22,753 nt of DNA from a virus. Lineage: Duplodnaviria; Heunggongvirae; Uroviricota; Caudoviricetes. Below the pieces are notes generated by a model. The model saw only the letters and a program-made list of their open reading frames with translations, made no database searches and was not told the origin of the DNA. The stretch is taken from IMG/VR virus record IMGVR_UViG_2526164651_000008, positions 1-22,753 of that record. One strand, 5' to 3'. Positions 250 to 1,410 of the stretch are shown piece by piece. A program made the translations under genes and the position numbers. Position 1 is the first letter of the stretch. Each line of letters begins with the position of its first letter.

Positions 250-315
250 TAAACACGTAAAATCGGTAACGGCTGGAAATCATTCAATACTCGCACTATC
301 GAAAGTTTACCAGCC

Positions 316-360
316 AACCGCAGCACGTCCTGCATACGTCGTGTCTGCGGTTTTTCTTTT
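316..360 (+). terminator. Rho-independent terminator-like hairpin plus T-tract downstream of the dinI-like gene
   Basis: AACCGCAGCACG...CGTG.CTGCGGTT stem followed by TTTTTCTTTTT. It lies between convergent genes (dinI-like on +, tfa-like fragment on -). Confidence 0.5.
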
Positions 361-364
361 TCGC

Positions 365-634
365 TTACATTGTGTCTGGTTCTTCCGGCCACTCAATATC
401 AGGTGCAGTTGATGTATCAACACGGTTCAGCAACACCCGATACTTCTTCCAGGCTTCCAGCAACGAGTTTTCTTCCTCCGTTGCGATCTCCAGATCTACA
501 GCATCCTGAAGTGGCGCAATATGCTCACTGAATCCCTGGATGTAGAACTGTGTGGTGACGGTCTTCCAGCCATTCGGCTCCTGCTGTATCGAAGCATACC
601 AGGCTATTTCAATATCGCTATGCTGCGGCAGCAT
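365..634 (-). CDS. Tail fiber assembly (Tfa)-like protein, C-terminal domain only; probably a remnant of a second tfa gene
   Basis: 89-aa ORF ending ...[48 protein letters not shown], the conserved C-terminal Tfa domain. Full-length Tfa proteins are about 190 aa. Confidence 0.5.
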
Positions 635-661
635 TTAACCCCTTGTAATTCATCGCCATAA

Positions 662-690
662 TTGATTTAATTCACAAATAAAACTATAAT
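662..690 (+). promoter_or_regulatory. Sigma70-like promoter motif (TTGATT-N17-TATAAT) directly upstream of the methyltransferase ORF
   Basis: TTGATT at 662-667, 17-nt spacer, perfect TATAAT at 685-690. The -10 abuts the annotated ATG at 691, so it is either unused or the gene starts at the second Met (ATG 703, preceded by GGTGA). Confidence 0.3.
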
Positions 691-1359
691 ATGGTGAAAT
701 TAATGAAAAAAAACACAGATGATGGGGCTAAAATTTACACACCACTTACCCTAAAGCTTTATGACTGGTGGGTTTTGGGAGTATCAAATCGGCTTGCATG
801 GGGATGTCCTACAAAGGAACACCTTCTTCCACACTTTCTGGAACATTTAGGTAACAACCATCTGGATATTGGTGTTGGAACTGGGTTTTACCTTACTCAC
901 GTACCTGAGAGTAGTCTGATATCTTTAATGGATTTGAACGAAGCTAGCCTGAACGCGGCATCTACAAGGGCTGGGGAATCAAAAATTAAACATAAAATTA
1001 GCCATGATGTTTTTGAACCTTATCCCGCGGCGTTACATGGTCAATTTGATTCCATTTCTATGTTTTACCTTCTTCACTGCCTGCCTGGAAATATATCTAC
1101 AAAAAGCTGTGTAATACGCAATGCGGCGCAGGCCTTAACTGATGATGGAACTCTATACGGAGCCACAATTCTTGGCGATGGAGTTGTGCACAATAGCTTC
1201 GGTCAAAAACTGATGCGCATTTACAATCAGAAAGGCATCTTTTCAAACACAAAAGATTCCGAAGAAGGCTTAACACATATACTCTCAGAGCATTTCGAGA
1301 ATGTTAAAACCAAGGTTCAAGGTACTGTAGTAATGTTTTCCGCTTCAGGGAAAAAATAG
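691..1359 (+). CDS. Class I SAM-dependent methyltransferase (Rossmann fold), function unknown; AT-rich cargo gene
   Basis: 222-aa ORF with motif I HLDIGVGTGFY (GxGxG) and a post-I acidic residue pattern (LISLMDLNE) typical of small Rossmann methyltransferases. No DNA-methyltransferase motifs (DPPY, PCQ) seen. The true start may be Met5 at 703. Confidence 0.7.
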   Translation: MVKLMKKNTDDGAKIYTPLTLKLYDWWVLGVSNRLAWGCPTKEHLLPHFLEHLGNNHLDIGVGTGFYLTHVPESSLISLMDLNEASLNAASTRAGESKIKHKISHDVFEPYPAALHGQFDSISMFYLLHCLPGNISTKSCVIRNAAQALTDDGTLYGATILGDGVVHNSFGQKLMRIYNQKGIFSNTKDSEEGLTHILSEHFENVKTKVQGTVVMFSASGKK

Positions 1360-1364
1360 CATCC

Positions 1365-1410
1365 AACCGCAGCACGTTCTTGCTTAAGACGTGCTACGGT
1401 TTCCTTTACG
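1365..1410 (+). terminator. Terminator-like hairpin downstream of the methyltransferase gene
   Basis: 13-bp stem AACCGCAGCACGT / ACGTGCTACGGTT (one mismatch), 11-nt loop, then a T-rich tract. The 5' arm CCAACCGCAGCACGT is also found in the hairpin at 313-327. Confidence 0.4.

Follow-up and report, generated by a model that had tools for sequence, protein, structure and literature searches.

Accessory genes of phages, known as morons, are reportedly bounded by Rho-independent terminators, and conserved boundary or linker sequences are said, under the modular theory, to lie at the module junctions of lambdoid phages. In enterohaemorrhagic Escherichia coli, the prophage anti-small RNAs (anti-sRNAs) AsxR and AgvB have 3' terminator regions of ~42 nucleotides (nt) that are conserved, whereas their 5' parts vary (Tree et al. 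2014, PMC4104026). In Shigella flexneri 301, an RNA of ~180 nt, CssrB (chromosome-encoded Shigella sRNA B), was detected between SF2021 and SF2022 by northern blotting with strand-specific probes, and its 3' end was set by terminator prediction only (Peng et al. 2011, PMC3071730). Intrinsic terminators that act in both directions between convergent genes have also been described (Ju et al. 2019, as cited in PMC7815308). Here, we describe two hairpins, H1 and H2 (Table 1), in a stretch of 22,753 nt from a virus of the Caudoviricetes (IMG/VR record IMGVR_UViG_2526164651_000008, positions 1 to 22,753; hereafter the window), whose start is the end of a lambda-like prophage of Shigella and enteroinvasive E. 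coli and adjoins btsS in the RefSeq-annotated locus. We propose, with a probability of roughly 70%, that H1 and H2 are copies of one conserved intrinsic-terminator stem-loop that stands where the late operon, with its tail fibre and tail fibre assembly (tfa) genes, meets oppositely oriented accessory ("cargo") genes, and that this stem-loop has roles for both the cargo and the late transcripts and is a joint of the prophage mosaic.

Upon comparison with these systems, we found the locus to be similar to each of them but identical to none. As in the moron terminators, the cargo has its own promoter-like site, a stem-loop and a T-run and is variably present among similar phages; in contrast to them, one terminator sequence is here reused by different cargo in many phages, at a convergent junction that would be read both ways. 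The lambdoid linkers share with it the short conserved stretch, the unrelated flanks and the free assortment of neighbours, but the unit described here also has an RNA structure that is under selection, and a transcript end has been mapped in a homologue; it is thus more than a linker for recombination. H2 is the 3' hairpin of CssrB (Rfam RF02799), which is matched over its full length at 230 bits; however, CssrB lies on the strand opposite to dinI and the methyltransferase gene, and H1 is found in no CssrB copy. AsxR and AgvB are sited downstream of PR', whereas this unit lies at the tail fibre/b-region end; base-pairing regulation has been shown for them, and the unit has no sequence similarity to them by Rfam or the published text. 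The supplements of Tree et al. 2014 contained no entry matching the hairpin or dinI, and in a preprint on Pas sRNAs there is no mention of dinI, tail fibre, CssrB or ipaH. As far as bidirectional terminators are described through the citation above, they resemble the present case in that one hairpin serves convergent units and that there is RNA-end evidence on both sides (Term-seq of a homologue and CssrB), and they differ in their A-tract/U-tract symmetry, which is missing here, where a T-run directly follows the stem on the cargo strand only. No name for the whole unit appears to exist in the literature covered, which does not extend to the older work on lambda terminators; a search for lambda b-region terminators (t'J sites) gave nothing usable. 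Three points add to the preliminary description of this DNA: H2 is already catalogued as the CssrB 3' hairpin, the canonical site of the hairpin is also 3' of tfa, and H1 is the end of a unit that phage lambda carries.

One hairpin family with a selected stem

The preliminary description held that the hairpins at 316-352 and 1365-1401 share the same 5' arm and overall layout. These coordinates were exact, and the arm was found to be identical over 15 nt: the 15-mer CCAACCGCAGCACGT occurs at 314-328 and 1363-1377, both on the plus strand with 0 mismatches, and with up to 3 mismatches allowed the window holds one further match, the 3' arm of H2 itself. The chance recurrence of an exact 15-mer in 22.7 kb was estimated by us at about 4e-5, and the likeness of H1 and H2 is real, not due to chance. 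RNA folding, proposed earlier as a check, gave the reported hairpins at both sites, with -19.0 kcal/mol (z -3.4) for H1 and -18.4 kcal/mol (z -4.0, plus strand) for H2; in neither case was any of 200 shuffles as stable. Only ~50 nt are alike, at about 301-352 and 1350-1401, and on either side of them the sequences are unrelated and do not align. The two hairpins are very similar but not identical; H1 has the bulged T344 and a loop one base shorter, while in H2 the loop is TTCTTGCTTAAGA and C1370 and A1396 form a mismatch on the plus strand, which becomes a G.U pair on the minus strand, where the folded stem is longer and unbroken. A consensus terminator scan listed neither H1 nor H2; because its rules admit only loops of 3-8 nt and no bulge, this omission is no evidence against them.

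H1 forms the 3' end of a conserved unit of ~100 nt, which consists of a leader of 60-65 nt and the hairpin. Window positions 256-352 are 91% identical to phage lambda, in which the copy lies between the leftward open reading frames (ORFs) 22686-23918 and 24509-25399, known as ea47 and ea31. The unit is also present in HK97, mEp460, Shiga toxin (Stx) phages and many other phages. The preliminary description had suggested a BLASTN search to see whether the hairpin flanks other cargo, and it does: 144 phage records matched the H1 query and 46 the H2 query, with a GIY-YIG gene, an invertase gene, a CdtA-like gene and others as neighbours, and in HK97 both queries matched the same place. The unit was found in 5243 of 5426 E. 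coli assemblies, with up to 8 places per genome, and an exact 18-mer of the leader occurs, chance matches aside, in Escherichia and Shigella only among the species representatives. In 58 non-redundant contexts, the mean pairwise identity on the left side of the stem was 0.6-0.74 over ~65 nt and then fell to about 0.32. The left edge of the leader showed at least nine different joints at GTAAAATC, and the unit is sharply bounded on both sides. RNAalifold revealed no convincing structure beyond the hairpin when the full unit was analysed on either strand.

At least 351 loci were collected from annotated records, from viral contigs by three pattern scans and from genome representatives by one scan. 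This sample was chosen by sequence patterns, among the matches listed (120 per scan), and its frequencies are not population estimates, a restriction that joins the reservations gathered below. From these loci, 72-77 distinct hairpin variants were extracted, 70 of which, H1 included, entered the structural alignment A2. In this 70-row alignment, 91.9% of the stem cells pair, compared with 26-48% when the partner column is slid, and both sides change in 5 of the 13 stem pairs. The alignment holds 24 compensatory cells as against 9.0 ± 2.4 in shuffles (none of 500 reached 24), and its covariation score is 0.157 versus 0.120 in shuffled and at most 0.071 in slid alignments. A separate count agreed with these statistics. 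The bulged base may be T, G, C, A or absent. H1 and H2 are thus members of one hairpin family of Escherichia/Shigella lambdoid prophages, the stem of which is under selection.

A small ORF running through the hairpin was ruled out, since one-base insertions and deletions in the loop and the bulge shift the frame between relatives and leave no conserved reading frame. As a clue to the functional strand, G.U-type and C/A-type mismatches were compared across the variants and were found to be roughly equal (about 47 versus 39). H1 and H2 fall in different subfamilies, each of which occurs separately elsewhere, and this rules out a recent duplication in place.

Transcript ends on the two strands

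On the plus strand, the stem is followed by a T-run, TTTTTCTTTTT at H1 and TTTCCTTT, within the T-rich tail TTTCCTTTACGATTT, at H2, and both hairpins combine the stable G+C-rich stem and the directly adjoining 3' U-run of intrinsic terminators. Among the right-flank classes, 12 of 26 have five or more T among the 8 nt that follow the stem, and two more do so once the stem cut is corrected. The methyltransferase stop codon lies directly upstream of the stem in 88 of 89 sampled places, 7 nt from the stem core in this census, and in the window it stands 5 nt ahead of A1365. By analogy with the K-12 homologue described next, plus-strand 3' ends in the window are predicted near 354-358 for H1 and near 1403-1404 for H2.

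A transcript end has been mapped at a homologue. Between ecpE and ykgJ, the E. coli K-12 chromosome carries a relic composed of a decayed dinI, the leader and the hairpin, whose stem is kept by double changes in two pairs (A-U to G-C and C-G to U-A); this relic occurs in most E. coli, and the H2 tail motif TTTACGATTT is common to it. Term-seq of MG1655 placed a 3' end of the relic at 304212/304213 on the minus strand in all three growth conditions (Adams et al. 2021, PMC7815308, supplements 1 and 3). Its sequence reads ...ACCGCUGUUCU(C), it lies outside regions of Rho termination, and it is listed there as 'orphan' (PMC7815308). The end lies 7-8 nt past the stem and 30-31 nt ahead of the ykgJ start codon, on the strand equivalent to that of dinI and the methyltransferase gene. 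Because it is Rho-independent and on the cargo-equivalent strand, the hairpin most likely terminates cargo genes, the in vivo end being that of the K-12 homologue. Since this end falls so shortly before the ykgJ start codon, ykgJ expression must come via read-through or an unseen promoter. EcsR2 of K-12, which is found on the opposite side of ykgJ, was ruled out as the relic element and is distinct from it.

The whole unit of ~100 nt could also be read as a discrete functional RNA of lambdoid prophages, lambda included, for example an independently transcribed sRNA or one derived from a 3' untranslated region, which was domesticated just upstream of ykgJ, where nearly all E. coli would have a fixed copy; the hairpin would then be a terminator or protein-binding 3' end and the leader a base-pairing or protein-binding part. 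The sharp edges of the unit and its at least nine left joints would fit such an RNA, yet H1 matched no Rfam family at E up to 1. The relic leader is about 90% identical, as against roughly 75% with a deletion (by eye) for the adjoining dinI remnant, but the invariance of the leader is partly built in by the search pattern, and the inner stem GGCTGG/CCAGCC shows one compensatory change and several disruptions. The orphan 3' end is reproducible in three growth conditions, and in HK97 the unit follows another terminator-like hairpin (by eye); however, a consensus scan revealed no promoter-like site upstream of the unit, and no 5' end or Hfq-binding data were found. Taken together, we consider a discrete functional RNA improbable.

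The late strand has evidence of its own. The Rfam CssrB model was matched at 230.2 bits against a gathering score of 76 over model positions 1-180, and H2 aligns with the terminal hairpin of the model at roughly positions 150-180 and forms its last third. A spacing of 11-13 nt separates the tfa stop codon from the stem in 111 of 117 sampled places, and the canonical position of the hairpin is directly 3' of tfa on the late strand. Like bidirectional terminators, both hairpins stand between convergent units, in that a plus-strand cargo gene meets a minus-strand unit at each (dinI and the truncated tfa' at H1, the methyltransferase gene and CssrB at H2). An A-run 5' of the stem combined with a U-run 3' of it is not present; the minus-strand tails, TTGGCTGG and TTGGATGC, hold at most 2-3 T beside the stem and no U-run, and the 5' flanks are CCAGCCAA at H1 and AAAAAATAGCATCCAA at H2, with an A-run 9 nt off. 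The spacing of the tfa stop codon and the ending of CssrB in H2 suggest that RNAs coming from the late side are likewise capped or stopped by the stem, likely as a secondary role.

From the same observations it could be argued that the late strand is the site of the main role, with the hairpin as the 3'-terminal stabiliser or processing site of the tail fibre/tfa transcript and as the CssrB terminator, and with its position after cargo genes incidental. The tfa spacing, the ~180-nt RNA seen with strand-specific probes, the ending of the Rfam CssrB match in H2, and the better pairing of H2 on the minus strand all agree with this, whereas a T-tract follows the stem on the late strand in no flank class (the best being TTGG or TTAG, TTAGTTTG), the conserved leader is on the cargo-gene side, the sole mapped 3' end of a homologue belongs to the cargo strand, and in CFT073 the next gene runs in the same direction as the unit. 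We therefore regard an exclusive late-strand role as rather unlikely, and a late-strand function is best seen as additional to cargo-gene termination.

The hairpin predates CssrB, since about 90 sampled places have tfa instead of the CssrB body. The sequence GTATCGTTTTTTTACAG at 1540-1556, upstream of ipaH, fits the MxiE-box consensus; it also overlaps the start of the CssrB match (1547) on the antisense strand. CssrB and the ipaH promoter may interfere with each other.

The hairpin as a proposed joint between modules

To the right of the stem, identity in the 58 non-redundant contexts falls to 0.29 within 3-4 nt, and these contexts comprise 27 right and 31 far-left flank classes. The left neighbours are the methyltransferase gene, dinI, the gene of a GIY-YIG protein and others, with ecpE in the relic; the right neighbours are tfa, a Pin-type invertase gene, the gene of a 99-aa (amino acid) membrane protein, tail fibre genes, a CdtA-like gene and CssrB/ipaH. 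Among the sampled places, the partners on the two sides occur in many combinations and assort freely, and the hairpin shows what is expected of a boundary or linker sequence, namely a short conserved stretch with unrelated flanks and independently assorting neighbours. The preliminary description had suggested a reused boundary element on morons acquired or shuffled as cassettes, and this is supported by homology that ends at the hairpin and neighbours that vary independently. BLAST matches of the window to phages likewise end at 338-356 and 1399-1402. Additionally, the allele CTACGG of the 3' arm remains linked to the right flank TTTCATTTATCTCC whatever the 5' arm, be it CCGCAG (mismatched) or CCGTGG or TCGTAG (both paired), and this co-occurrence indicates that exchanges have occurred inside the hairpin. 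The 99-aa predicted membrane protein has no Pfam match and is encoded to the right in 30 of 291 sampled places.

The preliminary description also suggested that the motif might be a recombination or regulatory site rather than only a terminator; a terminator that is also a mosaic joint fits the data, and a crossover site of an invertase does not. A DNA site of a site-specific recombinase of the Pin/Gin type, or a mobile repeat of the REP (repetitive extragenic palindromic) or MITE (miniature inverted-repeat transposable element) type, would account for the invertase gene as right neighbour in 29 of 291 sampled places and for an extragenic palindrome repeated at up to 8 places per genome. Nevertheless, the copies are direct (1049-1050 nt apart) and not inverted around an invertible tail fibre segment as gix/pix sites are, the hairpin lies downstream of the invertase gene at a variable distance (-1 to 155 nt), and compensatory changes preserve the pairing and not the sequence. 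There are also no terminal repeats or target duplications, and copies occur only in prophage end regions. These identities, which we hold to be extremely improbable, were rejected on the direct orientation, the pairing-preserving changes and the missing terminal repeats.

With the terminator and mosaic joint as the preferred reading, the history of the window can be outlined. Morons are marked by a promoter and terminator of their own; the methyltransferase gene has its promoter-like site and H2, and dinI has H1, with a promoter annotated ahead of its homologue in mEp460, the promoters being consensus matches only. The methyltransferase cassette is also variably present; in some phages it is matched from 387 or 410 to 1399 or 1402, while others carry dinI, hairpin and tfa only. 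As in the window, 44 phage contigs have two same-strand copies of the hairpin 1049-1050 nt apart around tfa' and the methyltransferase gene. One sampled locus, L041, represents the intact form: stf with a full tfa (194 aa) and the methyltransferase gene face one hairpin from opposite sides, and a second hairpin farther on stands opposite a truncated tfa' (89 aa). From these pairs and the L041 layout, we infer that the methyltransferase moron has a hairpin copy of its own as well as a duplicate of the tfa 3' end. The tail of H2 is still homologous to other family members to about 1414.

These observations can be combined into one scheme. On the cargo strand, transcripts would be ended by the stem and T-rich tail, that of dinI at H1 and that of the methyltransferase gene at H2. 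On the late strand, the stem after the tfa stop codon would cap or stop opposing RNAs and, at H2, serve as the 3' hairpin of the antisense CssrB. As the sole sequence common to otherwise unrelated neighbours, the unit would be the place where modules join; its near-identity over 40-100 bp would offer a substrate for homologous exchange, and recombinants retaining it would keep convergent transcription insulated. The methyltransferase moron, with its own promoter, hairpin and duplicated tfa 3' end, would have been inserted between tfa and the dinI hairpin, and a CssrB-ipaH cassette would later have replaced the tfa side of H2, with the joint between the 3' arm and about 1415.

Several observations weigh against this scheme. 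The commonest context, methyltransferase-hairpin-tfa with the flank CATAATCC, has no cargo-strand T-tract and neither has lambda's own copy, and both, like many other relatives, are without a U-run on either strand; efficient termination therefore cannot be general. The intrinsic-terminator score of the relic was 2.78, just below the cut-off of 3.0 in that study (PMC7815308), and the mapped 3' end is that of the K-12 homologue. The lack of a late-strand T-tract, given above, counts against a late role in our scheme as well. The loop and the 60-nt leader are conserved beyond what a terminator alone needs. Selection acting on random joints would also give junctions at the hairpin edge without homologous exchange, and the data do not separate the two; the single G-to-A difference of H2 could be a point mutation and not a crossover.

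Window layout and significance

The features discussed are collected in Table 1. In the RefSeq annotation of an identical E. coli O121 locus, the dinI-like gene encodes a DinI-like family protein, tfa' is a pseudogene, and the ipaH ORF is a 'T3SS effector E3 ubiquitin-protein ligase IpaHe' (T3SS, type III secretion system). The stop codon of tfa' lies 12 nt from H1, and its 3' part is repeated beside the methyltransferase hairpin in other phages. An Rfam IS009 match (408-611, minus strand; 129 bits against a gathering score of 117) lies entirely within the tfa' ORF, and this "RNA family" may be just a conserved piece of a phage pseudogene. The -10 hexamer of the methyltransferase promoter-like site ends at 690, one base ahead of the ATG at 691; because it abuts this codon, the ATG at 703 (MKKNTDD...) is the more likely start. 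The hairpin after the DUF4376 tail fibre gene is strong, and its sequence is distinct from the H1/H2 family. Elsewhere in the prophage, four tRNA genes (Met-CAT, Arg-TCT, Thr-TGT and Gly-TCC) are clustered at 18290-18600 on the plus strand, and a direct repeat of 300 nt, 99% identical, occupies 15660-15959 and 21729-22028, 6069 nt apart.

Table 1. Positions of the two hairpins and of the surrounding features in the window.
Feature	Position	Strand	Basis and remarks
dinI-like gene	1-249	+	Pfam DinI PF06183, E 1.2e-19; left cargo gene of H1
Leader	256-315	+	Conserved 60-65 nt, GTAAAATCGG...CCAGCC; precedes H1
Hairpin H1	316-352	+	Stem arms 316-327 and 340-352, T344 bulged
T-run TTTTTCTTTTT after H1	351-361	+	U-tract for predicted plus-strand termination; read from the sequence
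tfa' (truncated tail fibre assembly gene, 89 aa)	365-634	-	Pfam Caudo_TAP PF02413, E 4.6e-26; C-terminal part only
Promoter-like site TTGATT-17-TATAAT	662-690	+	10 of 12 consensus positions; consensus match only; for the methyltransferase moron
Class I S-adenosylmethionine (SAM)-dependent methyltransferase gene	691-1359	+	Pfam Methyltransf_12/23/25/11; left cargo gene of H2
Hairpin H2	1365-1401	both	Plus strand: terminator-like, after the methyltransferase gene; minus strand: 3' hairpin of CssrB
T-rich tail TTTCCTTTACGATTT after H2	1400-1414	+	Homologous to the K-12 relic tail and several phage copies (alignments)
CssrB small RNA	1547..1368	-	Rfam RF02799; ends in H2
ipaH-family E3 ligase effector gene	1675-3318	+	ORF; cargo right of H2/CssrB
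Terminator-like hairpin	3361-3382	-	9 pairs, 8 G-C, then GTTTTT; after the DUF4376 tail fibre gene, convergent with ipaH
Tail fibre genes	from 3498	-	ORFs and annotation

The current understanding of phage mosaicism is left unchanged by these results, and the locus is a tidy case of something already understood. It provides an example of how lambda-like prophages put together virulence cargo, here an ipaH effector gene, a methyltransferase gene and dinI, at their tail fibre end, where a small terminator unit would stay constant while the genes on either side are exchanged and its stem would serve transcripts in both directions. In E. coli K-12, the unannotated transcript end upstream of ykgJ belongs to a prophage relic. 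The 3' hairpin of CssrB would be an older phage terminator read backwards, which bears on the origin of this sRNA and on how reliable the limits of its family are.

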